A stretch of 55,643 bases of DNA, filler included, from Jimgerdemannia flammicorona (GCA_003990765.1; 3 parts of 3 records of this genome joined end to end with filler, not necessarily neighbours in it), one strand, 5' to 3'; positions 14,454 through 55,643 are shown, numbered from the whole stretch's first letter. Notes: generated by a model not told the origin, from the letters alone. Made by a program: numbers and translations.

Positions 14454-14456
14454 AGT

Positions 14457-21977: not shown

Positions 21978-22006
21978 CCATCTACACTCAACGCTCCTTC
22001 ATCCCC

Positions 22007-27320: not shown

Positions 27321-27328
27321 TATAAATA
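27321..27328 (+). promoter_or_regulatory. Putative TATA box
   Basis: TATAAATA ~45 nt upstream of the ATG at 27372. Confidence 0.45.
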
Positions 27329-27371
27329 TGCCTTTCGCCCTGTAAAATTCTCATACAGTGGAACATGGAAC

Positions 27372-33198: not shown

Positions 33199-33960
33199 AT
33201 GACTATCTACAGAACGACAATTGTCCATCACTACATTCCGCATTTCACCGACTGGCGGTGGTTCGCAGCACACTTCTCAGACCCCGAAGACCACGCTGCG
33301 CTCTTCGCGCTCTTCGAACTCACCAACCTTAAAGAACTTCAAAGGCGCCCAACGGCCTCCTTTTCTGCTCGCGCTTCTTTCAGTCCTGCGTCGGCATCCC
33401 CTACTTATATATTATCTGGGCCCCCACCTCCCCTCCTTGATCCACACCATGCGCCCCTCACTCACCTCCCTCGGCATCCGTGGAAACACCCCCGTGCTCT
33501 CAACCCTAACCCTGAACGCCGACACTAGTCTTCCACCACGCCCACCAACATACGTAGCCTCGATAAAGCAGCCTGGGCACCCCCATACTGGCGGCTCCCG
33601 GCAACAACCCAGGATATATCGATACTGGGCTCTCGGGAAACTGCCGAGTGCTGCACCCGGGCACTCCTCTTGCGAAGTCACCATCTGAGGAGCCTAAAAA
33701 TCGAGATGTGCGGCAGATGAACGACGACGTGCTCCGTGCCGTGTCGAGGCTATGTCGTGAGATCGAGGAGATACGCTTGGAGGATTACACGTCGGTCACA
33801 GGCCGGGCGGCCTGGGAGGACGGGACGCCCGCGGTTTGCGCGCGGCGGTGCTAAAGTGCGGGAAGCTGGTGAATGGATTCGTGGAGCGGATGGTAGAGGA
33901 GTGCGAGGCGATTGAGGAGGTGCGTATGTCCCATAGAAGCATCCAAGTCTTGGAGAACTT
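33199..33960 (+). pseudogene. Fragmented LRR (F-box/RNI-like family) gene
   Basis: LRR-like pieces in shifting frames: LFELTNLKELQ, PSLTSLGI, MNDDVLRAVSRLCREIEEIRLEDYTSVTG. Confidence 0.5.
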
Positions 33961-35651
33961 TTAAGCGGTATGTGTTTAAGAGAAATTACGCTTTGGGTGT
34001 TTGGGTGTGGGTTAGGCAGGAGGAAGTGTCTGAAAGTCAATATTTTAGAATACGATGTCCATGCACGCTTTTAGCAAGTTTGCAAAATGTAGGCCTTTCT
34101 TATGTTCGGTCTTCTTACTTTGGAATTTGTTGATATATCTATGAGCCCATGACAACAACGGATATGCGGAGGTTATACTTGGTATATTTCCACGCCCTGC
34201 TCATTAAAAAAAATAAAATAAAATAAAATAAAAAAAGTTACTCTCGTCCACGACTTGAATACGGGATACATGAACATCGCTCATGCCGCACATTATCTGA
34301 ACAGCTGCACAATCCTCTTTTAATTGTTCACTTTTGCGCGGAACTCGGTGGTGTGAGATTATAGTGACAAGCCCAAACATCATCACATGTTTTATGAGTC
34401 CAAGATACTCGGGCAACGTCACTCTTTCCAAGCTGGGGCCGACACACGGATTTTATCAAGCTGACGACTTCAAACGGATGGCAGGTGGAGCGGCTTGGTC
34501 GCAGGCAAATGAAAAGAATCCGTTGCCACGAACAAGGAAAGCGTGCAAAGATTTAAAATCGGTCGCCGTCCCGACAATTTACAACCTCGGTTCGGAGTCA
34601 TCTGTACAAATAATGGCGAATGTCTGTCTGATCTGGCCGATGACCTGTTGAAACTGCTGTAATGCGTCGGCTAGGTTGTGGAATTGAACACCACCAATTG
34701 TGGCGCCGTTCGAGAGACGAGACGACACGAGCAAACAAACTCGGTCAGAGGATTAAATCCAAACCCTCTATGTTGTTCCATATGGAATAGTCTCTCTTCG
34801 AAAAAGCGTCCTAACAACACTAGGAATTAAACGCAAAGAATCTCCAAATTGGAGGCACCTCCTTGTGCCTGCGAACCTCCTTATACCACTTCACTATAAA
34901 ATATTCTGGCCATTTCCTGTCTCGTTTCAAACGGATCATGCATGCATGCATTTTTGACATCCGCTGGAATATTATACCCTCGGATACCGGTGCTTATGCC
35001 TACCCAACGAGCTGTCTCAGACACCATTGTGCTTAGCTTACTGAAGGCCACCGAAATTATAATATGGTTTCTTTTGTTATCGTGTGTATCATCCTCATAA
35101 GAGCAGGAATTGTAAATTTACTCATCATTAATAATTCAAGCCTCTGAAGCGGGAGCGCCTGTTGGCTTTTCCGTTCTAGATATCACTCAACATCGCACCT
35201 CGTGATTGATGGACTTTTCGGCAAATTACATGAAGCCGACGCGTGTAATGCTTGTTAGGGAGGTCTGATATTCTTGGAATCTGAATAATTGGTAAGATGA
35301 TGGATATTGAGGCTGAGATATCGAAAAGCCGAAAAAGCTGTGAAAGACTCTGCGTTATTCGGTTCGGAGGGTTTAATTTATTGCATTCGGGATTTTGGTT
35401 TTGCGAGTAATGGGAAGTCAATAGGTGGGATCGATAGTGGATATTATCAAGCTAGCTACGACAGCCCTCAGCGCTGCCTTGCTAGTTATATGTGGGTTGG
35501 CTGCGGTCACAACGTAATTATGCAAGTCGACAAGATTCGCCTGTGAAGAGCTTTTTCGCGTTTTATCTGTTGTCTTTGCTCTGCTGACAATAAAAATGAC
35601 CAGAAAAAAAAAAAAAAAAAATCGTATGCAAGTAATCCGCATTATAACGCT

Positions 35652-36227
35652 TCATACAAATTGTATAATCTCCAAGTCTCCTGTTGCGCTATAAACTCTT
35701 TCACCGCCATCACAGACGATCCGCCTACTGAACCAACCCACCAACCACTCTTTTCCCGAGAAAAACGGCCCTCCATCCTTCTGCCACTCAAACCCCGCCT
35801 CCAGCAACACATCTGCTGATTCCCGTTCTATCGTCCCCAACGACACGGTCTCCAATCTTGGACATCCCCTGAGCATATGTCTCAGGAACTCCACCGATGG
35901 AATTGGATCCAGCTCGAACGACCTCAATCGCGGCCACACCGCCCCCCACTTCTCCTCTGTCGGCTCGACAACTGGGAGATCATCAGATTCTCGAGCTTCG
36001 CCGCTGACTCGGCCAGCAGGAAAACACCCTCGTATCGGAGTGCCACTGCCCGAGCCTTGTGAGCCTCGGCGCGGCGATCTTGGAGGAACACAACAAGCGC
36101 ATCTGTATACCTTATACCCACTCCCGCTGGTGAAGGTGAGGTCCCCGAGGAGCGAGCACGACGTCATCAACTCTTCCAGGACGTCGCAGAATCGTGTTCG
36201 AAGATGAGCGAGCGGAGATTGGCCCAT
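35652..36227 (-). pseudogene. C-terminal part of a decayed F-box/LRR paralog
   Basis: WPRLRSFEL...FLRHMLRGCPRLETVSL...LLEAGFEW resembles the C-terminus of 18928-20289 (PELRSLRM...FVTRVVGGCPEMRAL...LWEMGFS); an alternative LRR-like frame 35924-36121 suggests frameshifts. Confidence 0.55.
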
Positions 36228-36796
36228 CCGTGCAGCACGGTTGTGACGGCAACGGTCCTAATACTATTATTAATTTTGGACCGAAAACGTTCAATGACTG
36301 GCCATGACAACATAATCCATCACAATTCATTAACATGGCAGAAATAAGGCAGTTCTAAAAAGACCAGAGCGACTCCGAGGAACGATGGAAACCGTCTAGA
36401 AGGGCGGGCGGGTCGGTTTTGCGGAGCATCACGTATGGCTGTCTCGGGCGTCGGTAGAAACGGCGAGGCCGCGAATTGGTTGCCAAGGGCGGTACGGCGG
36501 TTCCACCGGTGCCCGCGTGTCGTGGGCCACGTTGTAGATAATTAGTTAAGTCGACAACGAAAGCCGAGCGTATGAAGAGCGACCCCACCAACATTCCAAA
36601 CATCTCTTCAAGCAGCTTTTAATCAAGCAAAGCAACATATCTCAAAAATATATTCCGTTCCCGTGTCTCACAAAATAACCTTCCCTATAAGAAATAAAAA
36701 AATTGACAAGTTCCTCCTATCTACCCACGCAGCTGCCGGTACCCGAGTAACACGTACGCTCAACCTTCCTCATTGGCCTTGATTACAGTTCGGAAA

Positions 36797-36983
36797 AGTT
36801 CAGCCCGTCATACCCAGCCTCGAAGTTCAGCCCGTAATACCCGGCCTCGAAGTTCAGCCCGTCATACCCGGCCTCAAAGTTTAGCCCGTCAAACTCGACC
36901 TCAAAGCTCAGCTCGTCATACCCGGCCTCAAAGTTCAGCCCGTCAAACCCGACCTCAAAGTTCAGCCCGCCATACCCGGCCTC
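36797..36983 (+). repeat. 27-bp minisatellite x7
   Basis: AGTTCAGCCCGTCATACCCGGCCTC(G/A)A units directly adjacent, no spacers. Confidence 0.92.
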
Positions 36984-37064
36984 TGGGAGATCCAGGAATT
37001 CGGAGAATTCAGCGAATTCGACGGGGGTGGCGGGAAGGGGGGCAGCGGGAAGGGGGGCGGCGGG

Positions 37065-37164: not shown

Positions 37165-37180
37165 AAAAAAAAAAAAAAAA

Positions 37181-38671
37181 GAGAGTTACTTTTTTAGGGT
37201 AGCCATTACATAGTTCTGGAAGAGTTTTCTGGAAGTTCTGGATATTCTGGAAGACTATTTTCTTATGGTCAAGATCAATTTCATATGAAGTACATCCTCT
37301 ATGCTTATTGATTTCAAGATCAGGTTGATGTCTCAACCAAAGTCCTTTTTCAGACTAGTTCTGAATGTTCAGGATTCTCTATATTTCAGGAAGTTCAAGA
37401 AACTAAGACTAGCTTAGTTGAATCAGCATATTGCTGCAGACAATATCCAATTAGGAAATTTTATGATGGGGTTAAGAGTGGGATCTAATGGAGAGCAGAT
37501 TTACTTAAGAGTGGTTTGTGGATTATTAAATAGGTTTATTCACTATTCATGATATTGCTATACTAGGAGTTGGTTGTATGAAGGAATATTATAGGGAAGT
37601 GCTCAGGAGTTATGTTCAAATTGTTCAGATCTTTTCAAGTCTGAGATTCTGAGGTCTGGGTGAGGGGGTATTTATACTAGTGAGGGGCTATCTGGACTAT
37701 GCTAAATATGGATATAGCACTAAGTACTTTGCTGAGTTGGAATGCAGTCACATAGTACAAGTGTGATCTGATATGTCAAGAGATCAACTGACTGCTGAGT
37801 CAGTTCACAGTCATGTCATACAAGACTAATCTAACTATACTATAACTGCTAGGCTATTTATAGGTTTAGACACTGTCTGGAAAGTCTTTGATGATATTAC
37901 CATTGATGACATCATTGCTGGCAAAGTCTGAGCAGTTTTCTAACTTCTGATGTCATTAGTTTCAAAAGTATTGTCACTTCTATCTCTTATAAGATTAAGG
38001 CTGTCCTTGGTGGTGGTAGTTGTACTAGGATAATAGGTCTTGGTTCTTTTTTTTTTTGGTCTGCTGGTGCATTTGTGAGGACTGGCCATTCTCATCTAGG
38101 GCAAGGGCTCCCAATGTCATAGCTGGGGGTTCAAACCTCTTGGAAATGATATTTTCTATAATCCAAGGCAATTTCTAGTAGTAATATCTATCACATGGAT
38201 GGCTTGAGATTGGTTTTGACATTGTTGGCTTTCTTGAGTTCAGATAAAGCATCCATCACTCTCCAACAGAAGTGACACAGATAGAGTAAATAGAGTTGTT
38301 CAAATGTGTTTTGCTTCTGCTAAGTAATGAGGTCTTGTATAGTTACAGTGTATCTTGGTCTTGAGTTGATAAGTGTAGTTCGTGAACCTTTTGGTAGATG
38401 AGATAGAGTTCTTCTTGTCTCAATTTGAGTTTGGTACTTTCAGTTTTCTTTTGTAATTATACAGTACACTAAACTAGTTATAGTGGTTCAGAGTCAATCT
38501 TATGGTTATAGTACTTCTTCTAGTATTCTTGTATCTTGGTGGTGGGTTCTCGTGCTTGCTGGCATATTTTGTATAACCAGATGATCTCTTGTTTGTAGTC
38601 TTGTATGTGGTTTCCAAATTAGTTCTGAGGATGCCATGTGATTTTGGTGGCTTGGAGGTTGTGTGCTTATA
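37181..38671 (-). repeat. LTR of a family-B-related element (B'), ~1.5 kb, with different U3 content
   Basis: Starts TATAAGCACACAACCTCCAAGCCACCAAAAT (cf. 46570); 37181-~37915 is the reverse complement of ~47890-48600; the middle instead matches family A 3690-3970. Confidence 0.8.
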
Positions 38672-40300
38672 ATGATATTAGTAAGTTTTTTAGCTAGAAA
38701 GTGGGCCTCCATAGTAACTATATTCAGTTCAATACTCAGGAAGACAATATATATTAATGGTCTGATGATTTTTTGCAGTTATGTCATCCATTTAAGATAG
38801 TGATAGAGATGAAGGAACTGGGAGAGGTTGGAGGATATGAGAGAGAGGTCATTGGAAAGTAATGTGAGAATAAAATCATCCATATAATGAAGGAGATATT
38901 AGAGGCCTTAGTGATGGGCAATCTATATAAGTAGTTTAGCAAAGATGTTGAATAGGAATAGAGAAGAGCTGGTGCCAAATGAGAGATAATGGTCAAAGTA
39001 GTATTGTTCCAGCTATTTAAATCTAAGTAATTTCCAATCTAATGAGTAGATGTATATATATATAATGAAAAGCATCAGTAAGGTCAATCTTGGAAAGTAG
39101 ACAGTTCTGACCAAATTATCAAATAAGATCTAGACTATCATCAAAACATATATAGAATATATGATAGGATACTAGTATTGATGGAGAGGCCATATTGGGG
39201 CCAGGAGAGATCATAGATATATTGTTATTTGGATGATGAATTCTTCTTAGTGATTACACCCAGAGATAAGAAGTGAAATAGAGGGAATAGTGGGGTTGAG
39301 AATGGGCTACAGATGTGACCAGCTATTACTTCTCAGATAATATTCTTAGAGATTACTTTAGCATAAGTAGTTGCTAACTGATGGTTAATCTTAATCTGAT
39401 AACACTGGGTACCATTGAAGCCCATAAGAATTCCTTGGAAAATAGCATCAACAACAGTGTGAGCAAGGTTCTGGTCTGGGTATATAATGAGAACTATCAT
39501 TTAGATAGCTAGTTGGAGAGCAGAGGGAAGAGGAGGGAAGTGAGCTTGGATTTCACAGATAGCAGCAATAAGGAGAATAGAGAGAGGGTGATGAAGACAG
39601 ATATTCAGAGCTGACTGGAGAAGAGTATTGCTAGTGGGTATTGCATGGTCAGGAGTAAGTTCCTAGGGTTATTTTGAGAGATTGTTAGAATACTCTAGCC
39701 AAAGGTAGTTAAGACTACAATTTAAACATATATGAGTATAAATATATTTACACTAGTAGCAGTCAGAGTTCAATATTAGAATACTATTGAGAAGAGAGCT
39801 ATTGTAGTTGTAGTATATCAGTAAGAGTTTTGAGGGGCTGGAGCTGCAAATAGTATATATTGAGTAAGACATCTGGTACAAATGAGATGATGATTTGGAA
39901 AATGAGACTGTAATAGAGGTAGATACTAGCAGCTTTTGATGAAGGCTCAGAGACATAAATAGATAGAGTCATATTTAGCCTAATAGTGGTACTATATGGC
40001 TGAAATGCTATCATAGCTAACTTCAGCAATGTGTTTGTTATAAAAGACAATATAGTAGTCAAGTAGTATATGCCAAAGTGATATTGCTATCAGAGAGACA
40101 AAGTTGATAGTATAAGAGAGAAAAAGCATGAGTTCAGTCAGTTCTACATAGGTATTATGAATAATACTAAAGTATATAAGTAGACTGGAGATAAAGATAG
40201 GATATCTGAGAGATTCTTATATAGGGAGGTAGCTTTCTTGATAATAATGCATGTGTCCAATTCATAGATTGAATTAGCATAAGATATAAGTGTTAATAAC
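38672..40300 (-). mobile_element. Relic of a DIRS/Ngaro-type (tyrosine-recombinase class) retroelement, RT region
   Basis: Manual translation ~39500->38860: EVIAGHICSPF...LGVITKK...IYDLSWP..GLSIN; FDDSLDLI..FGQNCLLSKIDLTDAF; YYFDHYLSFG.SSS.FLFNIFA; LLHYMDDF; recombinase not visible; upstream limit uncertain. Confidence 0.75.
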
Positions 40301-42167
40301 TTGGAGTATGTAAGAAGAAATAGAATGAGTAATAGAGTGAATGAGTGCCATTCTACTGAGTGACCAATATATATATCTAAGTAGTATATATTTATTTTAG
40401 CAAATACTAGCTAGAGTACATCATTTGTATCAAATTGTTCTTTGCTTTGGTGCTAAATATCTCTAGTACTGAATATTTAGAACTGGTATACAAATGCAAT
40501 ATAAGATCTCTATACTCTACTTCTAACCTGCAACTATAAGTAAATTAATCATTGTATGTCCATTGACTTGTAATCTCAGTTGATATTACTTATTTACCAG
40601 AGCATATACTATTCTCATAGCTCAAAGGCCAAGAGACAATAAAAACAATAAAGGAGACAAATAATGTCAATTTGAAAAAAGGAATAAACTCTGAAATGAG
40701 TTCTCAAGACTACAAAAAGAATTTAAGAAACTCTCTAATAAAGAAATAAAAGAACTCATAAAGAAATGAGTATGTTTTTACTACAATAAGAGAGGATATA
40801 TATCTCATGAATACTCTAACAAGACCAATATAAACAAAGAACCATCCTCCTTATATACTATTATTATAATAAGAGATGATTTCAAAGAAACCTCTGAGAA
40901 AATTAAGGTCAAGAGATTCTACATTACTATGAAGATTCCAGATAAAGTATATGAATCTGATGCTGGCTATAATCTCTACTTTAGTATAGAAGTAATTATT
41001 AAATTAGGCAAGTAAGTAATTATCAATATAGATATTGAAATAGAAGTCTCCAAAGAAATCTATATCTGTCTTATAGAAAGAAGTAGTCTGGCTAAAAAAG
41101 AAAGACTCTATATAGCTAGAGGAGTTATAGATTAAGAATTTAAAGACAAAATCAAGATTCTACTATATGTATAATACTAAATAAAAAGCTATCAAATCAT
41201 ATATAGAAAATGAGTTACCTAAGTCATCATTGAAGTAATATATAATAATCTTGAAGTTGAAGAAATAAAGAATCTCAAGATTGAGATCAGAAATAATATC
41301 AATATATTATTGATAGATATATTCCTGCAGGATGATGCTCTCATAGAATTAAGATATATTATTTCAAATACATAGAAGAATGTCTTATATATGTTCTTAA
41401 ATTCAAGAAGTATAAACCAACTATTCCAGAATAATGAGATGAAGAAATCAAGAGCATCAATGATAAAGATAGAGAAGTATAAGATTAGGAAGAAGAAACT
41501 ACTCTAGAAGTAATTATTACCTAATAAGAAACCAATATAGAATATATCTATCTTTAAAGGAAAATTGAAGGAAATCCTATTAAAGTTCTTATTGACAGTA
41601 GAGTAAGTAAATTCCATCTCAATAAAGAAACTACTGACAAATTTCACCTTAAGATGTAGAGGAATCTAGAAGAAAACATTACTATATTCAGAAACAGAAT
41701 AATATAGAAACTCTCTAAGATATACAAGAGTATACTTCTATAACTTAGAGACTATAATATAAGACAAACTTTTTACATTATATATCTCTCTTTATAAATA
41801 CAACCTCATCCTCAAAAAATTCTAACTTACTTAGGAGAATTTTTATATTGATTGATAAACCAATTCAATCTCTCTAAGAGATATCAAGTTATAACCCAAG
41901 TATACCAAGAAGAAACCAAAGTCTAAATGTGATATTATTTCTACCATCTAGATAAAAAAGCTGATTTAAAAACTAGACTAGTATATTTATATATATATAT
42001 ATAGTTAAGAAGACCTTAGAAAAAGATGATGAAGAACTCTCTGAACTTTTAAAGGATAAAGATAATGAGAAAAACAATCTCCAAGAACTACTTAAGGAAT
42101 ATGAAGATATTTTCCAAGAATCTCAAGAACTACTATCAGTCTGAGCAGTAGAATATAGCATCAAGAC

Positions 42168-42472
42168 TAGTGCTCTCAAATAAATTAAATTAATTTAAAT
42201 TAAATTAAATTGAGGGTTATTTGAATCAAATTCAAATCAAATTGAGGATCTAATTTAAATACTATTTTTCAAAATATAATAACTCAATGAAAATATATTC
42301 AAATTTAATAATCATTAGCTTGTTAAATTTCTCCTATATAGAGAAATCTAACAAGTTAAAAATCATTAAATTTGGACATATTTTCATTAAGTTATTATAT
42401 TTAAAAAAAAATTGAGTTTGAATTGAATCTCAAATTGAATTAGATCTTTAATTTGATTTATTGGAAGCACTA
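42168..42472. mobile_element. hAT-like MITE, 305 bp
   Basis: Imperfect TIRs TAGTGCT..CAA.TAAAT.AAATT; 8-bp TSD ATCAAGAC (42160-67) / ATTGAGAC (42473-80); internal inverted repeats. Confidence 0.85.
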
Positions 42473-43743
42473 ATTGAGACTATTTCTGGTTCAGACTCTC
42501 TCTACTGTAGAATCTATCAACTAGCCCAACCTAAGCTGAAGATCCTTAAAGAATAACTAGCAGAATTAACAAGTAAAGACCTCTTCTATTTATCAAAATC
42601 ACTATATAGTGTACCAATCCTCTTTATTTACAAGAAGAATAAAAGTCTCTATATATGTATTAATTACTGAATACTTAATAAGATCTCAGTCAAGAACTAA
42701 TATATACTCTCAAGAATCAATAAACTACTTGACCAAGTATATAAGGCCAAGATCTTCTCACTTATCAATCTTACTTTTAGATATTATCAAATTTATATTA
42801 AGAAAGAAGACATTCCCAAAATAGTCTTTCAAATAAGATTTAGACACTATAAATTCTATATAATATTATTTGACCTTATAAATATATTAACAATATTCTA
42901 AATACTAATGAATGACATCTTTTGAAAATACCTCAGAGTGTTTATTCTGGTCTATTTGGATGATATTATGATATATAGTATAAGTAATATAATTTACTAA
43001 TAATATCTACAAATGGTTTTTGATATACTCTATAAATATATACAAGCTCTCAGCAAAAAAAAAAGAAATACCACTTCTTCAAGAAGAAAATCAAATATCT
43101 AGAATATATTATCTTAGAAAATAGTATTACTGTTGACCCAGACCTAAGCAATCTGCAATTGACTCATTCTAAAGACTTTTAAATCCCTATGAGAATTCAA
43201 TAAACTAGCAGAATATTATAGGAGATTTATTTAAGGATTCTCTGCAATTACTGTCCTACTCATAAGCCTTATTAAGAAGAGAGTCAATATTAAAAAAGAA
43301 TAGACAGAAGAATGCATCACAGTCATGAACACTCTTATGAGAATACTGACTAATATATATATTAATCCTAATTAGTCTTAACTCAACAGAACCCTTCATA
43401 ATTACTACTGATGCTTCAAATATTACTATTAGAGCTATCCTGACTTAATATGAATACCCTGTTACCTACTTGTCTCAGAAACTCAATAAATATAAAAGAA
43501 ACTATACCATATAAGATAAGAAACTTCTTACTATCATCTAATCTCTACAAGTATGAAGATATTTTCTCCTCAGTAAAATGTTCACCTTATGGACTAACTA
43601 TTAAGTTCTCTGATATATCCAGACATAGCTAATTCTTACAGAAAAACAGGCCTATAGATGCAAATCTTTATACCCTTTGATATTAAAATTAAGTATATTA
43701 CTAAAACTAAGAATAAAGTAGTTGATATACTTTCCTAGAGTAT

Positions 43744-44691
43744 TATAAGAGGATTACTTTATTAGAGTACTATTACATAGTTCTGGAAGGGTTTTCTAAA
43801 AGTTCTGGAAGACTATTTTATTTAAGATCAAGATCAATTTTGTATAGAGTATGTTCTCTATACTTATTGATTTCAAGATTAGATTGATATCTCAACCAAA
43901 GTCCCTTTCCAGACTTGTTCTGGATGTTTAGGATTTTCCATATTTCAGAAAGTTCAAAAACTAAGACCAGCTTAATTGAATTGATATATTGCTGCAAACA
44001 ATACCTAATTAGGAAATTTTAAGATTTAGTTAGAAGTAAGACCTAATGAGATATAGATTTACTTAAGAGTAGTTTATAAGTTATTAAATAGGTTTATTTA
44101 CTATTCATGATATTGCTATACTAGAAATAGTATGTGAAGGAATATTTGTGTAGGAAAGTATTTATCTGGATTCTTGTCTATATTTCTATCTGAGTTTCTG
44201 AGGTCTGGAAGAGTAGATATTTATACTAATAGGAGACTATCTGAGCTATACTAAATATAGGTATAGTACTTAGTACTTTGATAAGTTAAAATACAGTCAC
44301 ATAGTACAAGTATGAACTGATATATCAAGAGATCATTTAACTAATAAGTCAGTATGCAGTTATATAATATAAGACTAATCTAACTATATTAATAACTACT
44401 AATCTATCTATAGATTTAGATACTGTCTGGATATTCTTCAATAAGATCACTATTAATGATATTATCTCTAATGAAGTAGTTATCTAAAAAGGGTGGTTTT
44501 TGAATTATATCTCTCTGTTTATTTATATAGTAGTAGGTTAGAACTATATCACTATCTCATAGGATAGTATCATCTATCTCATATACTGAGTAGGGTATCA
44601 GTGGGTCAAGAAAGAGTATATTATCTTTACTTTTATTGGATTTACTATCAGCATACCTTTGATAGATTACAGTACTATATATTGTAGAGTT

Positions 44692-44729
<38 letters not shown>

Positions 44730-46299
44730 GATAAACTCAGTCAACAGACTGTACCAAAAACAATTTATTTGGACATACAATCATAGATACACTGCACCTA
44801 TACATAGAGCATCAATTAACTATTATCTTTTTTCATTATAATGACCCAGTCGATAGTAACTTTAAGGTCCTTCAGAGTGATGTTCTTATTGCTGAGATCT
44901 ATTTCCTTAAGATTACCACTGACTTTCTTCTTCTTCAGAATGAAATTTTTATCTTTTGGATTATGCTCCATCTTAAGTATATATAACAGTTTACCAATAT
45001 CAGTCATCTTATCTATCTTGATCAAGTGGGTTGAGCTGTCCAACCATTAAACCATAAAGATGATAAATTTGACTAGCTTATTCTCTATACTACAATGTTT
45101 GTCATTCATTTGTCTGCTGAACTTGATGAAATAATTGACCTTGGGTGTCTTGTTCTCAGTTACATCAGATATACTAGTTAGTTTCAGGTATAAATCATTG
45201 CAGAGTTATAGTATACTAGTAGCTGTAGTTTATTTTATTTATACTTAGGAGGTAGGGTTGTTAGTTCAATCTTGAGAGTTATTTGGAGATACAGGTTATG
45301 TTCTCTAATCTCTTCATTATAGTTGAAGTAATTAGGTATAAATGTAGGTTAGTATTCATACTAGTGGTTATTATCTCAATAGATCTCATAGATGGTTATA
45401 AACTGTTATAAGTTTATTAGTAAAGTTGGTGGAGTAATCAGGGTTGGCAGAGATCTTTAACTGGAGGTCATATCAGTATCAGAGAGATTATTGTCTTCTG
45501 CTTCATCATTGTTAAACTGAATTATATCATAGATATCCTTTATGATATATCCAACTTGGAATATTTGCAGGATGTAGTTATTAGAATATAGGAAGGATTT
45601 GTCTGTAGTTTGGACATACTTGATATACTTGTAATTGAGTTCTTATATTATATCATTGATTTGGCCATAGGACAGAGTGGCAACCATTTTAGTAGTAGTA
45701 ACTTAGAGGCAGAGAATAAAGGTACTGTACTTATAAAAGAGTTCTCAGTATTTGTAGATAATAAGTTTCTGGTATTGAGACATTTTGATAATATCTATAT
45801 TGTAGTAGTGGCTAACCATATCTTCTAGGAGATAGCTGATCTGGTAGTAGCTTGAGATTTGTCTAATTTGGTGGTCTTTACTAAGTATGTTCAGGATATT
45901 CTATTGGGCTTCTACAAAATAGAGAGATACTAGGCTATAGATATTTATAAGGGGTAGGAGAGGTGTGGCTAAGTTGATAATAATATTCCAAATATTAGCA
46001 TAGATACAGTTGTAGACTTCAGTGGTCATATTTGGTATATATTCAAGAGTTGTAGTTATTTATTTGATTTGTTGTAGTTCTCTATTTTGATATGTCTGTA
46101 TATTCAGTATATATATATGCTTTTAGTCCTGATTAGTAAGGTTCCATTTTTGTAAATATTGTATTCTGTAACTTTAAGTTAACTCAGCTTTGTGATCTGT
46201 GACTTCAGTTTGACTTAGCTTCATAATCTTATATGTAATTTCTGAATTTATTCTAAGAGTGATATGTGATTTTAGTAGCTTAGAGGTTGTATGCTTACA
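43744..46299 (-). repeat. Old solo LTR of family B, carrying a retroposed insertion
   Basis: Reverse complement of 46570-48606 with heavy C>T/G>A change; flanks AGTAT/AGTGC are consistent with a decayed 5-bp TSD; host pol continues across it. Confidence 0.9.
44692..45196 (-). pseudogene. Polyadenylated retrocopy (5'-truncated) encoding a possible ubiquitin-like domain
   Basis: Poly(A) 44693-44725, AATAAA ~40 nt upstream, stop at 44816, 11-bp TSD ATTGTAGAGTT (44681-91) / ATTGCAGAGTT (45197-207). Confidence 0.75.
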
Positions 46300-46683
46300 A
46301 GTGCTCAGAAAGATAACTTTATTGTAATTTGTAATATTATTACTAGTCTATTTGAAAAAGTCAAGAAAGAGTATACCAAAGATAACAATATATAAGAAAT
46401 TACTAAAAAAAAATCCTTAAAGAAGGCAGCAATATCATGAAAAAGATCTACAAAAATATATCTATTCAAAATAGATATATGTATCTTAATAATATAAGAA
46501 TCTAGATCTCTGATATCTCTATCTACATATAAATTCTATAAGAACTATATAATATACCTATAGCTAGATTGTAAGCACACAACCTCCAAGCCACCAAAAT
46601 TACACATCACTCTCTGAACAAAGCCACTGAAATCACATGCGACCTTCGAACAAATCTGGAAATCACCTGCTTGATCATGAAGC

Positions 46684-46721
46684 TGAGTCAAACCGAAGTC
46701 ACAGTACACAAAGCTGAGTCA
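46684..46721 (+). promoter_or_regulatory. Two TGAGTCA (Gcn4/AP-1-type) sites in a 31-bp tandem repeat in U3
   Basis: TGAGTCA at 46684 and 46715, retained in the 3' LTR; TGACTCA also at 47992. Confidence 0.4.
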
Positions 46722-46830
46722 ATACGAAGTCACGGAACACAAGATCTACATAAACGGAACCTTATCAATCAGGACCAAATGCATATATACTGAGCACCGA
46801 GACACGTCAAATCAGAGAACCAAAACAAAC

Positions 46831-47928
46831 ATGACCACTGAGATCTACAACTACATCTGCGCTGATATTTGGAATGCCATTGTCAACCGAGCCACACCCC
46901 CTCTGCCCCTCATGAATATCCATAGCCTGGTACCCCTCTACTTCATGGAAGCCCGATGGAATGCCCTGAACATGCTTAGCGAGGCCCACCAAATCAGACA
47001 AATCTCAAGCTACTACCAGATCAGCCGCCTCTTGGAAGACATGGTTGAACACCACCATGATACAGATATTACCCAGATGTCTCAACACCAGAAGCTCATT
47101 GCCCGCAAACATCGAGAACTCTTCTATGAGTACAACACCTTTATTCCCTGCCTCCGAGTCACTACCAGCGAAATGGTTGCTACTCTGTCCTATGGCCAAA
47201 TTGATGACATGATACAAGAACTCAACCACAAGTACCTCGAATACATCCAGACCACAGACAGAACCTTCCCGCACCCTGATGACCATATCCTGCAAATGCC
47301 TCAAGTCGGATACACCATGAAGGACGTCTACGATATAATCCACTTCGATGAAGATGAAGCAGAAGACAATGATCCCTCCGACGCAGACATGACCTCTAGC
47401 CAAGGATCTCTGCCAACTCTGATCACTCCACCAATCTTGCCGATGAACTTACAACAGTTCATAACTACATACGAGACTTATTGGGACAATGACCACTGGC
47501 ACGAATACCAACCTGTGTTCACCCCCGATTACTTCAATTATAATGAAGAGACCAGAGAACACAACCTATACCTGCAGACAACCCTCGAGATCGAACCAAC
47601 CACTCCACCACTCAAGTACAAGCAACATGAACCACAGCCACCAGCATACTATAACCCCGCAACTCATAGTGCTGTAACCTATAGAAGGTACGCAGACAGC
47701 GAATCCGATGAAAGTGAAGACAGTACATCCATCCTTCACCCACCAACACCTTATCCAGTATACGAAACAGACGATGCTATCCTGTGGGACGGAGATGAAG
47801 TCCCAATGTATTACTACCTCAGCCAACAAGGAGAAGTAATCTGCGAACTATTATTCCTAGACAACTACTTCATCAGAGATGATGCAATCAATGGTGATGT
47901 CATCGAGGACTACCCAGATAGTGCCTAA
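46831..47928 (+). CDS. LTR(U3)-encoded accessory protein, 365 aa, unknown function
   Basis: Intact ATG-to-TAA ORF inside the LTR; helical-looking N-half, acidic/Pro/Tyr-rich C-half; copies in the 3' LTR (ATG 55415) and the solo LTR. Confidence 0.8.
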   Translation: MTTEIYNYICADIWNAIVNRATPPLPLMNIHSLVPLYFMEARWNALNMLSEAHQIRQISSYYQISRLLEDMVEHHHDTDITQMSQHQKLIARKHRELFYEYNTFIPCLRVTTSEMVATLSYGQIDDMIQELNHKYLEYIQTTDRTFPHPDDHILQMPQVGYTMKDVYDIIHFDEDEAEDNDPSDADMTSSQGSLPTLITPPILPMNLQQFITTYETYWDNDHWHEYQPVFTPDYFNYNEETREHNLYLQTTLEIEPTTPPLKYKQHEPQPPAYYNPATHSAVTYRRYADSESDESEDSTSILHPPTPYPVYETDDAILWDGDEVPMYYYLSQQGEVICELLFLDNYFIRDDAINGDVIEDYPDSA

Positions 47929-48117
47929 ACCTATAAATAGTCTAGCAGTCATAGTATAGTTAGATTAGCCTTGTATGATGTGACTGTGAACTGACTCAGC
48001 AGTCAGACGATCTCTTGATATGTCAGATCACACTTGTACTACGTGACTGCATTCCAACTCAGCAAGGCACTTAGTGCTACATCCATATCTAGTATAGTCC
48101 AGATAGCCCCTCACTAG

Positions 48118-48125
48118 TATAAATA
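48118..48125 (+). promoter_or_regulatory. LTR TATA box
   Basis: TATAAATACCCCC, the same motif as in family A LTRs, ~480 nt before the LTR end. Confidence 0.65.
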
Positions 48126-48609
48126 CCCCCTCCCCCAGACCTCAGAATCTCAGACTTAAACAATCCGAACACAACTCCTGAGCACTTCCCCACAATACAC
48201 CTTCACACAAATACTCCTAGTATAGCAATATCATGAATAGCAAATAAACCTATTCCATAACCCACAAACCACTCTTAAGTAAATCCGCTCTCTATTAGGT
48301 CCTACTCCTAACCCCCTCACGAAATTTCCTAATTGGGTATTGTCTGCAGCGATATGCCAATTCAACTAAGCTGGTCTTAGTTTCTTGAACTTCCTGAAAT
48401 ACGGAAAATCCTGAACATCCAGAACTAGTCCAAAAAAGGACTTTGGTTGAGACGTCAACCTAATCGTGAAATCAATAAGCGTAGAGGATGTACTCCATAC
48501 GAAATTGATCTTGACCATAAGAAAATAGTCTTCCAGAATATCCAGAATATCCAGAAAACCTTTCCAGAACTACGTAACGGTTACCCTAAAAAGCAACCCT
48601 CTTACAACT

Positions 48610-48618
48610 TGGTAGCAG
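48610..48618 (+). other. PBS (initiator tRNA-Met type)
   Basis: ACT + TGGTAGCAG, identical arrangement to family A. Confidence 0.8.
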
Positions 48619-49568
48619 TAGTTTACAATCCAATTCTACTTCAAGATGCTTCCTCACCCTGCTACAAACCCCTCTGAGAATTCCTACAAGTTGGTATAAA
48701 GCCCAACCTCTGAACTGGAATTTATCCTGAACTATCTGACAATCTGGAGAGAATTGAACCTGACATACAAGGACAATTTGACCTCCACACCTGCAACAAG
48801 TGGGATAAACTTCATTCAAAGAAAGAAATACTCCAGTTAAATCAGCAAATAGGTGAAACCCTATTCACCGAACTTCTTGTACTACACCCAGCAAGTCAAG
48901 ATGAAGAAGGTCTTATTGAAGCCTTCTTTACTCTTCTCAACAAGAGTTTTGTCAGCTCTACAAATCCGAGCGACCTAGGACAACCAGCAGCAGTCTTTCT
49001 AGCCTTAGTTCCTCACGAAGCCCAAGCCTCTGTAGCCAAGTGGCTCAACTCTACCGACTTTCACCGCACCAGGACCAAGACCGCATTATACTACTGATTC
49101 CAGAACAGCAAGGCCTGCCATATTCTTAAGGAAGAAGCAAGAGAAACCCTTCATCAACTACCTGACCCCAAACCTGAAGCAGGCCCTGCTACAGCCCTAC
49201 CTGAATCTGAAACCAATACCGAACCTGAACTTGACTTTGAATTAAGTCTGTCTGAAATCAGATATACAACTGATTCTGTCTACTTTGATGCCGAGCAAAC
49301 CCAATTACATGGGGACCAAACCGAAGAAGAGGAGGAGTATCTTACTGAATTTGATCCCGGATACACCACCGAAGGAGACGCACCTCCATCAGGACAGAAT
49401 ACATCTACACAGCAACAAACAGCTATCTATCAAGCCCTCACTCCAGATCCACAACTACTACTCCAGCAGCTTATACAGACCCAAAGAACTCCATCACACT
49501 CTGCACCAGTACCTCAAGTAGTACCAGTAACACCACTACCAGCAGTCCAACTGCCTCCAGTAAACAAC

Positions 49569-52500
49569 ATGGCGAACCAACAGATTCTAGACCTCACAGC
49601 CCAAGTAGCTATAATGGCAGCAACCATTACTGCCTTAGCTGAACAGACCCGACCTACCAAAAATCTGAGCCTACCTACCTTTAATGGTACTGCACAAGAA
49701 GTCCAAAGCTTCATTAGTGTAGTTGACACCAACTTTGAAGCCAATCAATGGACCAATGAGCGAGTTGCTGACTGCGTTCTGATAAACAATCAAGACCACA
49801 CCCTGGAACAACTCTTTGCTACAACTACAGCCTATGTCTGCCGAGTTGTTACATTCTTCCAAGGACCCGCCGAAGAATGGTGGCGAACCCTTCCTGAAAA
49901 ACCCCTCACATGGGATACCCGACCTGCAGTAGTTGCTCAGAATGCAGCAAACAATACCCCAGGATATGGAGCCCATCCTGCAGCCCCTGGACTCAAACAA
50001 CTCATGATTGCTCAATATTGCAGTGAGACCATGATTGCCGAATCCTGAGTAAAACTCTGCAACCTCAAATTCGATGTACATGGCAAAGAAGAATTTGAAA
50101 CCTTCTGTACAAAACTCGAGTCACTCTTGAATACTGTTGGCCTAGGATACATTGCCAATGACAAAGCACGAAATGGTACAAGAGCAGACCATTTATTTGA
50201 TGCCCTGCCTGAATGGCTTACTAGAAAAATCCGAGAACAAGGCTGCCCAGTTGGTTGTGATCACCAACAATGGTGCCTGGCAAGAATCAAGACCATGGTC
50301 AAGTGAATTCTAACAGCTGGACCAATTCTGCCTCGAAGACAATTCAACAACAAGGAAAAGACTTGGACCAAGAAAGAAGAACCCAAGCATAAAGCATCTT
50401 GAGCTCCCTCTACATCCATCTCTTGGACACCCAGAAATCATGAACCCACCCAGCCAAGTACCTTCAAGAAACTTACTGAAGGCGAAAGGAATGAACTTCA
50501 AAGAAGCAGAGCATGCTTCTATTGCCAAAAGACAGGACATATGGCCAGTGCCTGCCCAAACCGAAAACCTCGAACAGCAACATGAGCAACTGTTACAGCT
50601 CTGCACCACCTCAACAACCTGACCACCAGAACACTAGACTTTGTCAAGTTAAGACAAACTGCTAAGGCCCCAACCAAAGGAAGTCAAAAAGCAGCCGGAT
50701 ATGACCTGTATGCAGCCGAAGAAGCTACAGTTTCCAACTGAGAAGTCAAACAAGTCTATACAGGAATCAGTATCCAAATCCCTAAAGGACATGTTGGAAG
50801 AATATGCTGTCACAGTAGCCTAGCATTAAAAAGACTCTCAGTAGAAGGAGGAGTCATTGATGAGGATTACACAGGCGAAATCATTGTCCTCATCCGAAAC
50901 CACAGTTGGATACCCTTCAAGATCCCTATTGGCTTCTGCATCGCCCAGATCCTATTCAAAAAAATCGAGTCAACCCTGACAGTCAAGGAAGTCCCTGAAC
51001 TACTACCCACCATCTGAGGATCCAAAGGATTTGGCTCATCAAACAAAGTCCCAGCCCAACCTACCATAAGTAAAGAAGAACAATTCTACAAGAAGATCGA
51101 AGATGGATATGTACCAAGTGGCTGATGCCCTCATGGTATTGGAATGTACTCTTCCCAAATGATTGATGATTGCTTCTCTTGTGTCAACAAACTGGCTCAA
51201 AGAAGAACCAACAGAAGAAAGGCTCCTACAACTGAAATTACCACCATTGGATCAGACAAACTGCTCACCCTTAAGGCTTTTGTCAACAGAGCACCTGTCA
51301 AGATTATAATAGACAGTGGTGCCTCAGGCAACTTCATCAATGAGGAAATAGCCAACAGACTCAAGGTCTTTACCTCTCCAGTACAGCAAACTCAAGCAGT
51401 TGCTACAGCTGATGGAACCTCACATGTTATTAGCAAAGAAGTCTGCAATCTACCCTTCCGAATTGGCGACTACCGAGTACATGTTACCCTCCAAATCGTA
51501 CCACTTCCTGACAATGAAATTATCCTTGGGACTCCATGGTTAAAACAAGAGAACCCCATGATCGATTGGGTAAACCATTCTCTAACCATCAAGAAAGGAC
51601 GCCACAACTTCAAACTACAAGGTGAAAAGGACCCACTCAACTCTAGTGACCCTGGACCGAAGATCACCCACATCAACAAGCTACAACTCAAGAAATTGGC
51701 CAAGAAATGCCCTCTCTTCGCCATCTCCATCCGACCATCCAAAGGAGAACCCGAGAACTCTGAAGAAGATTTTTCCAAAGTTGACAGCCATGTCAGACCA
51801 CTACTCCAGAAATTCTGAGACATATTCCCAAAGAAACTCCCGAAAGGCCTACCTCCCAAATGAGCAGTAGACCATGCTATCAAGACTATTCTAGATGCCA
51901 AACCAGCTTTCAAGTCAATCTACCACATGTCTCTGAGAGAAATTGATGCACTCAAGAAGGAAATCGATGAACTCCTAGAACAAGGATTCATTAGACCTAG
52001 TGTATCACCCTACGGTGCACCAGTCCTCTTTGTTGTAAAGAAAGGAGGAGACCTACGAATGTGCATTGACTACCGCAACCTCAATGAACAGACCATCAAG
52101 AACTGTTGCCCACTACCGAGGATTGATGAAATATTTGATAGACTTACCAACCCACAATTCATGAGCTCTTTTGATCTGCGAAATGGTTACTGGCAAATTG
52201 CCATGAAAGAAGAAGACATCTACAAGACAGCTTTCCGAACTCGCTATGGACACTTCGAGTTCCTGGTTATGCCCTTTGGCTTAACTAATGCTCCGGCAAC
52301 CTTCCAGACACTGATGAATACCATTCTGCATCCATATCTGGACAGATTTGTTGTTGTCTACATTGACAACATCCTAGTCTTCAGCAAAACCCTGAAGGAT
52401 CATCTTGAACACCTTGAACTAGTACTACTGAAACTCCAAGAAAACAGACTCTTTGCAAAACTCAGCAAGTGCGAATTTCTTCTGAAAGAAATCCAATTCC

Positions 52501-54701
52501 TTGGACACATTGTCACTCCGAATGGAATCAAAGTGGACCCCAGCAAAATCTCTGCAATCAAAGATTGGCCCAGACCAAAGAAGCTGAAAGACCTCCAGTC
52601 ATTCCTGGGATTAGCAAACTATTACAGGCAATTCATTGCCAACTTTGCCAAAATCACTACTGCCCTTACCCAAATGACCAAGCACAGCAAGAAACAAGAA
52701 CAACCGTGGACTATGAAACAAGAGAAAGACTTCAACAATCTTGTAACATGGGGACCCGAACAAGATACTGCCTTCCAAGCGCTGAAAGATGCCCTGATAA
52801 CCACACCAGTACTCCAAGCAACAAACTCTGCCCTACCATATGAAGTCACTACCGATGCCTCTGACCTAGCTCTTGGAGCAGTGCTCATGCAAGAAGGACA
52901 CCCTGTGGCCTATCACTCCCGCAAGTTCAACGATGCCGAAATCAACTATGCCACTCACGAGAAGGAAATGCTAGCCATTGTAGACACTCTGATCAAATGG
53001 CGACCATATCTAGAAGGAGCACACTTTACTGTATTGACTGACCACAAGTCATTAGTCAACATCAAGACCCAGGCTACCCTTTCTCGAAAGCAAGCCAGAT
53101 GGATGAAAGTTCTCACCAATTTTGACTATGAAATCCAGTACCACCCTGGCAAAGAAAACATTGTTGCCAATGCAATCTCCAGACCACCAATCGAAGAGGT
53201 TATCTAAACCCTGACCTTGGTTACCAATACTATCATGGAACAAATCATCGCAGTATGTGTAGATGATAAAGAAGCTCAAGCACTCCGAGAAATCCTGAAC
53301 AACGATGATGCTGACAAGCATACCCGGTACAATCAATACCAACTCAAGGACAATGCTATCTACTACAAGGACAGACTGTATGTCCCAAACAACCGAGACC
53401 TCCGAAGGACTATCCTATTCGAATGTCATGATGCCCCTACAGCTGGACATTTAGGATTTGATAAATGTTACAAAGTTATCTCCCGAAACTTCTATTGGCC
53501 CCGCATGGCAGATCAGCTCAAAACCTATATCACTTTCTGTGATGCCTGCCAACGAAACAAGTCCTCAACACTAGCAAAACCCAGCTTACTCCACCCTATC
53601 CCAGTACCATCTGCAAATTGGGAACAAATCTCCATGGACTTCATTGTACAACTACCCCGAACCAAGAATGGAAAAGATGCAATTGTTGTCTTTGTGGACT
53701 ATCTTAGCAAACAAGCCCACTTTCTGCCTACCACCACTACTGCAACAGCACCAGACATAGCCACACTCTTATTTGATAACATCTTCCACTATCATGGTCT
53801 TCCCAAGATCATTGTTAGTGACCGAGATCCGAAATTCACCAGCCACTTTTGGAAAGCCCTCCATGCACACCTTGGAACGAAACTTGCACTATCCACAGCC
53901 TTTCACCCTGAAACTGATGGCCAAACCGAAAGAATGAACCGAACTCTGGAACAAATGCTAAGGAACTATGTTTCCTATAGACAAGATGATTGGCATGAAC
54001 ACCTTACCACAGTTGAGTTTGCCTACAACAACAGCAAGCAAGCCTCTCTTGGAATGACTCCATTCTTCGCCAACACTGGACAAAACCCAGACACCTCTTT
54101 GACACTTATCCGAACCACCGAAGAACCCTCCACAGTCGAAGCTGTTGAAGAATTCCTGCTACGAATGCGAAATCTAAGCCAGATTGCAATCGAGAATTTA
54201 TCACGAGCCCAAGAACAACAGTCACAGTATATTAATCAACACCGCCGAGAAGAAACCTTTGATATCAGAGAAAAAGTTCTACTAGACATCAGAGGATACC
54301 GAGTTGACAACCTCAAGCACAGACCATCTACAAAGCTGAACAGTAAGTTCATTGGACCATTTGAAGTCATCGCACAAGTCTCTCCAACCTCCTACAAACT
54401 GGCGCTACCGGACACCATTAAGATTCACCCAGTCTTTATTGTTCAACGTCTCAAGCGATACAATGACAATGATGACAAACTATTTCCAAATCGAACCACC
54501 AAACCATCTGCACCTGTCATCATTAATGACTAAGAAGAATATGAAGTTGAACAAATCCTCAACAAACGTGGAAACAAGAACCATCCCGAGTACCTTGTCA
54601 AATGGAAAGGATACCCAATCCATGATGCAATATGGGAACCCAAGACCAATCTCCAGAATGCTACCGACCTAGTTCAGGAATATGATTCCTTGAACAACTA
54701 G
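49569..54701 (+). pseudogene. gag-pol: Element B gag-dUTPase-pol, with scattered premature stops (mostly TGA)
   Basis: LPTFNG capsid; CFYCQKTGHMASAC (~50514); IIDSGAS PR; RT/RH 51927-53207 (YIDN variant); IN 53217-54533; chromodomain YEVEQIL...YLVKWKGYPIHDAIWEP. Confidence 0.96.
50630..51043 (+). pseudogene. dut: dUTPase domain of element B
   Basis: AAGYDLY, SSLA, GGVIDEDYTGEI, IAQ, GSKGFGSS: all five trimeric dUTPase motif positions, some degenerate. Confidence 0.92.
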
Positions 54702-55112
54702 AACCAAATACTCTGCACCGATCTGTACATACTATATATTATCCTCCCGAACATTATAACTATCACGAACCACATCAGAAACTCAGCAAAACAAGACAAG
54801 AATACCAACCCTCTGGAAAAATAGCAAAACTGAAAGCAAGCCTATTCTCCCCGTACCACTGGCAGGAAACGAGGCATAGACATTTAAGAAGATTCCTTAG
54901 AGGAAATTCTCCAGCAGTGAATGATGTCAGAATCACTTCCGGCGCATGGCATTGAACACACGACCCTTTAACGTGTGAATCCAACGCATTAGGCAACTGT
55001 ACTACGAGCATGCCACTTTCTGAGAAAATGGACCTTACCGGACTTTTGACCTCCCAAATGTTGTAACAACACTGGAACAAATTAGAAGGCCCCGACGAGG
55101 ACGTCGAAAGCT

Positions 55113-55125
55113 AAGAAGGGGAGAG
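55113..55125 (+). other. Polypurine tract of B
   Basis: AAGAAGGGGAGAG immediately before the 3' LTR. Confidence 0.9.
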
Positions 55126-55126
55126 T

Positions 55127-55643
55127 TGTAAGCGCACAACCTCCAAGCCACCGAAATTATACGTCACCTTCTGAACAAGCCACTGAAATCACATGTGACC
55201 TCCGAACAAATCTGGAAATCACCTGCTTGATCACAAAGCTGAGTCAAACCGAAGTCACAGCGCACAAAGCTGAGTCAATACGAAGTCACGGAACACAAGA
55301 TCTACACAAACGGAACCTTACCAATCAGGACCAAATGCATATATACTGAGCACCGAGATGCGTCAAGTCAGAGAACCAAAACAAACAACAACCACAACTT
55401 CCAAACACACAAACATGACCACTGAGATCTACAACCGCATCCGCGCTGACATTTGGAATGCCATTGTCAACCGAGCTACACCCCCTCTGCCCCTCATGAA
55501 TATCCATAGCCTGGCCCCCCTCTACTTTGTGGAAGCCTGATGGAATGCCCTGAACATGCTTAGCGAGGCCCACCGAATTGGACAAATCTCAAGCTACTAC
55601 CAGATCGGCCGCCTCCTGGAAGACATGGTCGAACACCACCATG
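55127..55643 (+). repeat. 3' LTR of B (partial)
   Basis: Matches 46570 onward; has ~28 bp extra before the ORF ATG and a CGA>TGA stop at 55538-40. Confidence 0.95.

Follow-up and report, generated by a model that had tools for sequence, protein, structure and literature searches.

A chromovirus copy of fungal type with an open reading frame inside its long terminal repeat and an ATG-free extension ahead of Gag

Analysis of a 55,643-nucleotide stretch of DNA from Jimgerdemannia flammicorona (GCA_003990765.1; three parts of three records joined end to end with filler, the whole being called the window here) led to a single plus-strand long terminal repeat (LTR) retrotransposon, element B, at 46570-55643. 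Element B is an old copy of a Ty3/Gypsy chromovirus (Metaviridae) of fungal type and has decayed through transitions. The plan of its lineage is a long Gag N-terminus, a Gag core, a CCHC nucleocapsid (NC), a dUTPase, a Cys motif, a protease (PR), a reverse transcriptase (RT), an RNase H, an integrase (IN) and a chromodomain, all in one polyprotein. Two regions of the element are unusual, namely an open reading frame (ORF) of 365 codons inside U3 of the LTR, named the accessory ORF, and an in-frame extension of 285 codons without ATG ahead of Gag. To the reading in which this anatomy is correct and both regions were coding in the active element we assign a probability of about 0.7. A divergent family, A, is also present in the window with two copies on the minus strand (A1 and A2). 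The original prediction, made from the DNA alone, had proposed that such a combination may represent an undescribed lineage. This has to be narrowed, as the dUTPase of fungal chromoviruses has been published and the extension is not an added module, but three features are possibly new: the ATG-free Gag extension, the ORF within the LTR and the promoter that this ORF may have of its own. A literature search, in which subscription journals were not covered, returned no published account of an LTR retrotransposon whose LTR contains an ORF, of an ATG-cleared in-frame Gag extension or of this combination of features.

Structure and Decay of Element B

Element B bears hallmarks of Ty3/Gypsy elements, with LTR ends of the form TG...CA, a primer-binding site (PBS) behind the 5' LTR and a polypurine tract (PPT) ahead of the 3' LTR (Table 1). 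Its two LTRs differ at 33 of 489 aligned bases, 32 of these mismatches being transitions, and the alignment has a further 29 gap columns. The boundary of the LTR is confirmed by two minus-strand B-type LTR copies in the window (43743-46281 and 37179-38672), since both cease to match B at 48603-48607. B and A share their PBS spacing and the TATAAATACCC motif, as had been claimed. In both families the terminal CA of the LTR is followed by ACT and then by TGGTAGCAGT(A/G)G, and TATAAATACCC, the presumed TATA box of the genomic promoter, precedes the end of the LTR by 489 nt in B and by 481 nt in family A. The motif is found at six exact sites (48118 in the B LTR, 2273, 10645 and 14900 in the A LTRs, 3521 inside A and 37666 in an LTR variant) and at 13 sites with at most one mismatch, against 1.0 expected, and none of 100 shuffles reached 13. 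ARAGORN detected no tRNA genes in the window.

The gag-pol region of B is one frame (48714-54701) without frameshift. It has 12 internal stops (10 TGA and 2 TAA) in 1995 codons (48714-54698), while the other two frames over 48429-54760 have 93 and 127. In the read-through translation Pfam domains follow one another in the order zf-CCHC, dUTPase, PR, RT, RNase H, IN, SH3_Tf2-1 and then chromodomain, which is also present in A (PF00385, E=3.4e-9); the Gag core of B itself had no Pfam match. A frameshift ahead of the chromodomain was considered and rejected, since this domain is located in the gag-pol frame, behind a TAA.

We read the internal stops of B as decay. This follows from the transitions between the LTRs, from a low CpG observed/expected ratio (0.40-0.58 in B and 0.13 in A, compared with 1.09 in the middle of the window, which carries genes), from P0006, a database fragment of another copy that has Arg at the window TGA 50046 and at two window Cys codons, and from the variable Arg of dUTPase motif V. 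The use of TGA as a sense codon had been suggested by the makeup of the stops, since TGA accounts for 10 of the 12 and none of these is among the best-supported 40 of 1431 differences between B and the contigs of four public runs aligned to it. It was rejected in view of the Arg of P0006 at 50046 and of the motif V position, which is stop, Cys or His across three copies. The dinucleotides are asymmetric between the strands, with TpG at 1.51-1.56 and CpA at 1.05-1.08 of expectation over 46570-55127 of B, and family A (1-15256, minus strand) gives the mirror image on the plus strand (CpA 1.47, TpG 1.16). Either more C-to-T changes on the sense strand or a bias already present in the original sequences may lie behind this.

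The Accessory ORF Inside U3

The accessory ORF at the 3' side, which had been noticed in the original prediction, stands as described. It has no stop over its 365 codons, while the other two frames have 13 and 28, and it starts again at 55415 in the 3' LTR, where a TGA (55538-55540) takes the place of a CGA in the 5' copy. Its codon usage resembles that of gag-pol in the right frame only (score +0.162 per codon), by a measure with which three non-coding segments of the element reach at most +0.06 in every frame. In the contigs of the four public runs, 12 of 23 indels were considered. Eight of them are uncompensated and all eight fall outside gag-pol and the accessory ORF, whereas two frame-restoring pairs fall in coding sequence, one in each coding region (47728/47731 and 50563/50571). 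The peptide beginning VKPKS ahead of the Met was rejected as a part of the ORF, which is taken to start at its ATG because an indel in the 3' LTR throws this peptide out of frame.

The accessory protein was searched in 5.8 billion clustered proteins and 1.84 billion representatives. Two fragments proved to be relatives. P0004 has 90% identity and the same Met start, and P0002 aligns along 247 residues at 67% identity, remains open, shares the C-terminal end and differs by two in-frame gaps of 2 residues. A third match, P0005, is a repeat protein matching 38 residues and was judged spurious. The best score in the ESM Atlas was 0.81, below the lead threshold, and no relatives were confirmed in metagenome contigs (ORF alignments) or in viral contigs (ORF and Gag alignments). 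A protein search with Gag gave P0006 as its single match, and the accessory ORF resembles neither Gag nor the extension that precedes Gag. The protein is acidic, rich in Tyr and Pro and lacks a hydrophobic segment; it is therefore not an Env.

Family A has a frame of similar size and position between its chromodomain and its 3' LTR. The other frames there hold 12 and 23 stops and the codon score is +0.087. The frame crosses the PPT (2630-2618), and an exact extra copy of the LTR TATAAATACCC is established 63 nt upstream of its ATG.

In the active element this 365-codon acidic ORF would be an accessory gene. As the plus-strand primer site is upstream of it in B, it would be copied into both LTRs as a part of U3, and its location at the 3' end of the genomic RNA means that it would need a message of its own. 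A promoter within the initial 260 bp of the LTR could supply such a message, as could splicing, and in either case the transcript would terminate at the poly(A) signal of the LTR. The candidate promoter element CATATATAC, 42 nt upstream of the ATG, is kept in the 3' LTR copy, and two TGAGTCA motifs stand further upstream within a direct repeat of about 30 nt (46684-46721); we take these to resemble an AP-1/Gcn4 site. In family A the message would start from the duplicated TATAAATACCC. We propose the own promoter tentatively, with somewhat less than an even chance, and hold splicing to be the less likely of the two routes. That the protein has a regulatory or RNA-handling role is a guess. None of the 20 public runs carrying part of B is an RNA run.

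The Extension Ahead of Gag

A Met-free, in-frame extension before Gag had also been described, as an extra beyond a standard Gypsy element. The observation itself is borne out, since the 285 codons ahead of the Gag core of B contain no Met and the same is true of both A copies. The three frames of the extension have 1, 10 and 22 stops in B, 3, 12 and 21 in one A copy and 4, 10 and 19 in the other, the gag frame being given first, and the codon score in B is +0.167 per codon in the gag frame and below zero in the other two. The extensions of B and A are similar to one another (z=11-12; 0 of 300 shuffles reach the score), that of A is similar to the first 290 residues of P0010, an intact relative (z=5.8; 0 of 300), and the N-terminal region of P0010 is in turn similar to that of P0008 (z=5.5; 0 of 300). 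Because of this chain of homology from B through A to P0010, and on to P0008, the extension is assigned to the normal Gag N-terminal region of the lineage, and not to an added module as had been supposed.

What distinguishes the region in B and A is its lack of ATG. Met is absent from it in B, A1 and A2, compared with 4 in P0008 and 3 in P0010. A and B have the first in-frame Met (49569) in common, and neither P0008 nor P0010 has it. The depletion extends to all frames. The extension of B has 3 ATG in 855 nt, whereas equal windows of B gag-pol have 12-27 (0 of 86 windows with 3 or fewer), and that of A1 contains 5 within 831 nt (none of 87 windows with 5 or fewer). Avoidance of ATG in the other frames is not expected of ordinary coding sequence, and this scarcity fits a scanned leader. 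Gag-pol has more ATG than its base composition predicts (115 against 67.6 at 49569-54701 of B; 106 against 74.4 at 4154-9285 of A1), an excess that would fit ACG-to-ATG decay and beside which the ATG-poor extension stands out more.

We suggest that most ribosomes would scan an ATG-poor leader of 1.4 kb as far as the Gag AUG at 49569, and that a minority would initiate at a near-cognate codon in frame and produce an N-terminally extended Gag. Candidate starts in a favorable context, having A at -3 and G at +4, occur in both families (B, CTG 48744; A, GTG 10074 and 14354). Translation of the extension by near-cognate initiation is, in our estimate, slightly favored.

Alternative Readings

The accessory ORF could be a passenger, a captured or chance frame in U3 without a role in the life cycle, and a group of results points that way and thus weighs against the coding reading. 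No homologue of the accessory protein beyond its own family was found among the 1.84 billion representatives, it contains 0 Pfam families, and its AlphaFold2 model is unusable, with a mean pLDDT of 34.9 and hence no confident fold. Given the stop density of gag-pol from 49569 onward, 11 in 1710 codons, a run of 365 codons would be expected to contain about 2.3, and an open ORF in the B copy alone is only mildly unlikely, at roughly one chance in ten. The LTR variant at 37179-38672 retains only the last ~16 codons of the ORF, which is thus dispensable for the persistence of an LTR. Moreover, the similarity of the accessory ORFs of A and B is not significant (z=1.5, a score attained by 30 of 300 shuffles; hhalign E=0.32), so that a common origin is not established. 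A passenger would nevertheless hardly have gag-pol codon usage in the right frame only, or remain free of stops where the other frames have 13 and 28. The frame is also kept open in both relatives, at 90% identity with the same start and at 67% identity with the same end and in-frame gaps, only frame-restoring indels occur inside it among the 12 of 23 considered, and family A has a frame of comparable size and position. We therefore consider the passenger improbable and retain an accessory gene as the preferred reading.

For the extension, the alternative is the ordinary N-terminus of a long Gag, whose ATG start was lost by mutation in the copies seen and which needed no special initiation. 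C-to-T decay of ACG makes ATGs and does not remove them, Met is lacking in three copies of two families with Gag only 32-35% identical, every frame is poor in ATG, with 3 and 5 per ~850 nt where the remainder of gag-pol has 8-27, and Met 49569 is kept in A and B but absent from P0008 and P0010; all this is difficult to reconcile with a simple loss. Such a loss is nonetheless favored by P0008 and P0010, which begin with M about 210-290 residues upstream of the Gag core and have internal Mets (unlike B), although the initial M of gene-caller proteins may not be an ATG. Every copy in the window is decayed and both A copies come from one family. In addition, the extension of B compared directly with P0008 and P0010 is not significant (z=0.0 and 0.8), the link passing through A, and for B and A we infer all of the transcripts, start sites, splicing and non-AUG initiation. 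The lost ATG accordingly keeps appreciable weight, and near-cognate initiation is placed above it. As regards the anatomy, the 3' LTR of B is incomplete, visible over 517 bp only, and its full length and the target-site duplication lie beyond the window. One could thus suppose that the 2-kb repeat is not a true LTR, that the ORF precedes gag as an internal gene, and that the copy at the window end starts a tandem second element. A purine tract abutting 55127, TG...CA termini with inverted TGTAAG/CTTACA, a PBS 3 nt past 48606 and two more copies of the 2-kb unit in the window sharing the end base make this highly improbable, and the repeat is treated as an LTR.

The dUTPase and the Cys Motif

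The dUTPase is located between the CCHC knuckle and PR, just as predicted (PF00692, E=5e-30), and the order NC, dUTPase, PR is found at three places in the window: B, family A and an AT-rich remnant at 40602-41252. Its catalytic motifs in B are recognisable but decayed. Two TGA fall within the domain, at 50739 and at 51015, the second of them at the position of the motif V Arg, where the two A copies have Cys and His. A Cys is also found in the stretch that we take, by eye, to be motif 4, and the motifs are present in the relative P0008. In the active element the enzyme would lower dUTP where reverse transcription occurs, the role assumed for retroviral dUTPases, and would so leave less uracil in the cDNA.

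The Cys/His linker of the original prediction stands in part. The Cys motif between dUTPase and PR is common to B and A, but part of the Cys/His richness of these copies consists of decayed Arg codons. A similar motif was recognized by eye upstream of the dUTPase in P0009 and P0010, and insertion of the dUTPase on either side of an older Cys motif would fit. In practice, Cys, His and stop codons of transition-decayed repeats are often former Arg codons, and "Cys/His-rich" motifs should be checked in less decayed copies.

Polyproteins related to the NC-to-PR part of B carry PF00692 in 32 of 35 cases, and 9 of these 32 have a chromodomain too. Six polyproteins were inspected. The three best matches, P0008, P0009 and P0010, have zf-CCHC or Gag, then dUTPase, then PR, and by reading P0014, P0018 and P0023 have PR ahead of dUTPase. 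The position ahead of PR in B is real. It is not new, because it has already been published for fungal chromoviruses (Novikova et al., 2010; PMC2864245) and because nearly all of the related polyproteins carry the domain.

Table 1. Features of element B and family A in the window.
Feature	Position	Strand	Evidence or remark
5' LTR of B	46570-48606	+	2037 bp, TGTAAG...CTTACA; repeat with 55127-55643
Two TGAGTCA motifs	46684-46690, 46715-46721	+	~30-nt direct repeat in U3, upstream of accessory ORF
TATA-like CATATATAC, candidate promoter element	46782-46790	+	42 nt upstream of accessory ORF ATG; kept in 3' LTR copy
Accessory ORF	46831-47928	+	365 codons, 43 kDa, pI 4.35; wholly in U3, between LTR start and 48118 TATA
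TATAAATACCC, presumed genomic-promoter TATA box	48118-48128	+	motif count
AATAAA, candidate poly(A) signal in R	48243-48248	+	read from sequence
PBS TGGTAGCAGTAG	48610-48621	+	3 nt (ACT) past LTR end
Pre-Gag extension	48714-49568	+	285 codons, gag frame, no in-frame ATG; 3 ATG over all frames
Gag core	49569-50507	+	starts at Met common to A and B
NC zinc knuckle CX2CX4HX4C	50508-50561	+	PF00098, P0007 residues 68-85
dUTPase domain	50661-51041	+	PF00692 E=5.1e-30, P0007 residues 119-245
Cys motif CPH...MY...CxxC	51126-51182	+	between dUTPase and PR; common to B and A
Aspartic protease (DSGAS)	51252-51602	+	PF08284/PF13975
RT and RNase H	52038-53123	+	PF00078, PF17919, PF17917
IN (HHCC finger, core, SH3_Tf2-1)	53391-54461	+	PF17921, PF00665, PF24626
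Chromodomain, gag-pol frame	54540-54686	+	PF00385 E=2.1e-17; pol end TAG 54699-54701
PPT	55106-55125	+	directly before 3' LTR; read from sequence
3' LTR of B	55127-55643	+	first 517 bp only, reaches window end
Family A element A1, complete	1803-10989	-	9187 bp; LTRs 815 bp (1803-2617; 10176-10989), 5-bp duplication ATTGA
Family A accessory frame	2613-3531	-	TATAAATACCC 3531-3521, ATG 3458, 307 codons, 2 stops

Comparison with Known Elements

Betaretroviruses such as mouse mammary tumour virus (MMTV) and Mason-Pfizer monkey virus (MPMV) carry a dUTPase in pro, and MMTV has its sag gene in U3. B shares with them the order NC, dUTPase, PR and, with MMTV, a long U3 holding a whole ORF. Like sag, the ORF of B is inside U3, here upstream of the TATA box at 48118, whereas the A frame ends at LTR bases 3-5. 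B differs from betaretroviruses in its single frame (no -1 gag/pro/pol frameshifts), in the absence of an env-like ORF and in its chromodomain integrase. No sequence relation of the accessory ORF to Sag, Nef or Bet was found, with 0 Pfam families and own-family matches only. The likeness is one of layout only, and the comparison drawn originally with betaretroviral gene order and with genes overlapping U3 is apt as such an analogy. Murine leukaemia virus (MLV) has a CUG-initiated N-terminal Gag extension, glyco-Gag, and foamy viruses have an internal promoter. A and B resemble the former in their in-frame, AUG-free extension upstream of the Gag AUG, and family A resembles the latter in its second promoter-like TATA motif before a 3' accessory gene. 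Unlike these viral systems, A and B give no evidence of a signal peptide, have no homology to them and are known here from sequence only.

The closest relatives of the NC-dUTPase-PR part of B are P0008, P0009 and P0010 (32-34% identity), which have the dUTPase before PR as well. A zf-CCHC knuckle scores before the dUTPase in P0008 and P0009, P0010 shares the Gag N-terminal region with A and B, and P0009 shares RT, RNase H, IN and chromodomain with B. All three differ from B in their M start and the Mets of their N-terminal region, and P0009 and P0010 also in the Cys motif standing before the dUTPase, by eye. Among published elements, Novikova et al. (2010; PMC2864245) place the dUTPase of fungal chromoviruses at three positions, one of them being the N-terminus of Pol in PosPlaTy3-3 of Postia placenta, and cite earlier reports of a dUTPase for Phanerochaete and Tuber. 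PosPlaTy3-3, -4 and -5, the elements of Phanerochaete chrysosporium and Tmt1 of Tuber melanosporum are like B in being Ty3/Gypsy elements with a chromodomain, a polyprotein dUTPase and a CCHC Gag, and PosPlaTy3-3 also in having the dUTPase ahead of PR (PMC2864245). For some elements of fungi the legend of figure 3 of that paper lists an 'add. ORF' whose function is unknown. The text describing these elements makes no mention of an ORF in the LTR, an ATG-free Gag extension or a Cys motif beside the dUTPase (PMC2864245).

Plant LTR retrotransposons have additional sense ORFs 3' of pol (PMC7264820), and in bdelloid rotifer LTR elements, which also have a dUTPase, the ORF3s are reported to be separate transcription units with spliced messages (PMC5408684). 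Like family A, both groups carry one more ORF in the interval from pol to the 3' LTR, with a function that is either unknown or other than that of Env (PMC7264820, PMC5408684). B differs from them, as described in these sources, in that its ORF is inside the LTR (PMC7264820, PMC5408684), and the rotifer elements differ from B in having their dUTPase between PR and RT (PMC5408684).

Evolutionary Implications

A broader reading, which we regard as unlikely though worth stating, is that a fungal chromovirus lineage independently evolved the expression plan of a complex retrovirus, with a promoter-bearing gene in U3 and two Gag isoforms, the longer of them non-AUG-started in an AUG-cleared leader. 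An upstream shift of the plus-strand primer site would then have drawn the accessory gene into U3 in B. The usual view of LTR retrotransposons is that of machines for gag and pol, with accessory genes and layered translation counted among the refinements of retroviruses. If the broader reading is true, an LTR-borne gene and an AUG-free Gag extension arose outside animals. Every LTR of the B family, solo ones included, would be a small gene, and solo LTRs would be potential protein-coding units across the genome, which matters for fungal annotation since such ORFs get masked as repeats.

Family A and Further Copies in the Window

The complete family A element, A1, is inserted in the RT of the second copy, A2 (10990-15256 and 4-1802), with ATTGA at 10994-10990 and 1802-1798. 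The apparent 4.3-kb 'tandem duplication' of the window (6711-10989 versus 10990-15243, 90.5% identical) is this nesting of A1 in A2. In the LTR variant at 37179-38672, 704 bp (37915-38619, minus strand) replace nearly all of the accessory ORF of B, and 293 of these are 78% identical to the spacer of A between pol and its accessory frame (3676-3965, minus strand). This A-like part shows that the 3' ends of the families recombine and that the LTR boundary has shifted relative to homologous sequence.

The other minus-strand LTR copy, at 43743-46281, has ~520 extra bp (44678-45198) at codon ~278 of the accessory ORF. The region 37179-46281 as a whole is a mosaic, with the two minus-strand B-type LTR copies around a plus-strand Gypsy remnant (40722-43652) that has a dUTPase. 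With a GC content of 0.25-0.37 and a CpG observed/expected ratio of 0.01 it is far more decayed than B or A, and may have had a different or much longer mutational history, perhaps resembling repeat-induced point mutation.

Other Features of the Window and Public Runs

The region 18928-36257 is a host gene region of normal CpG content (observed/expected 1.09) with long ORFs at 18928-20301 and 20493-21443 (minus strand), and near 29701-31939 a signature of a fungal Zn2Cys6-type transcription factor was recognized by eye, which supports a fungal source. The region 15300-19000 has a CpG observed/expected ratio of 0.13 and a GC skew of -0.40 to -0.52, ends in an N run near 18535 and contains an internal repeat (16942-17409 versus 18016-18483, 71% identical), with no Gypsy similarity seen. 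Tandem repeats were located at 36768-37010 (27-nt unit, 7 or more copies, beside a run of N) and at 24538-24709 (86-nt unit, two copies).

Parts of B are found in the soil and root metagenome runs X1-X20 from 13 studies, in shares of at most 0.29, on which no claim about habitat is based. In run X1, 9110 contig pieces match B at a likeness of at least 85%, and the B family is for this reason taken to be abundant in a soil-dwelling organism.

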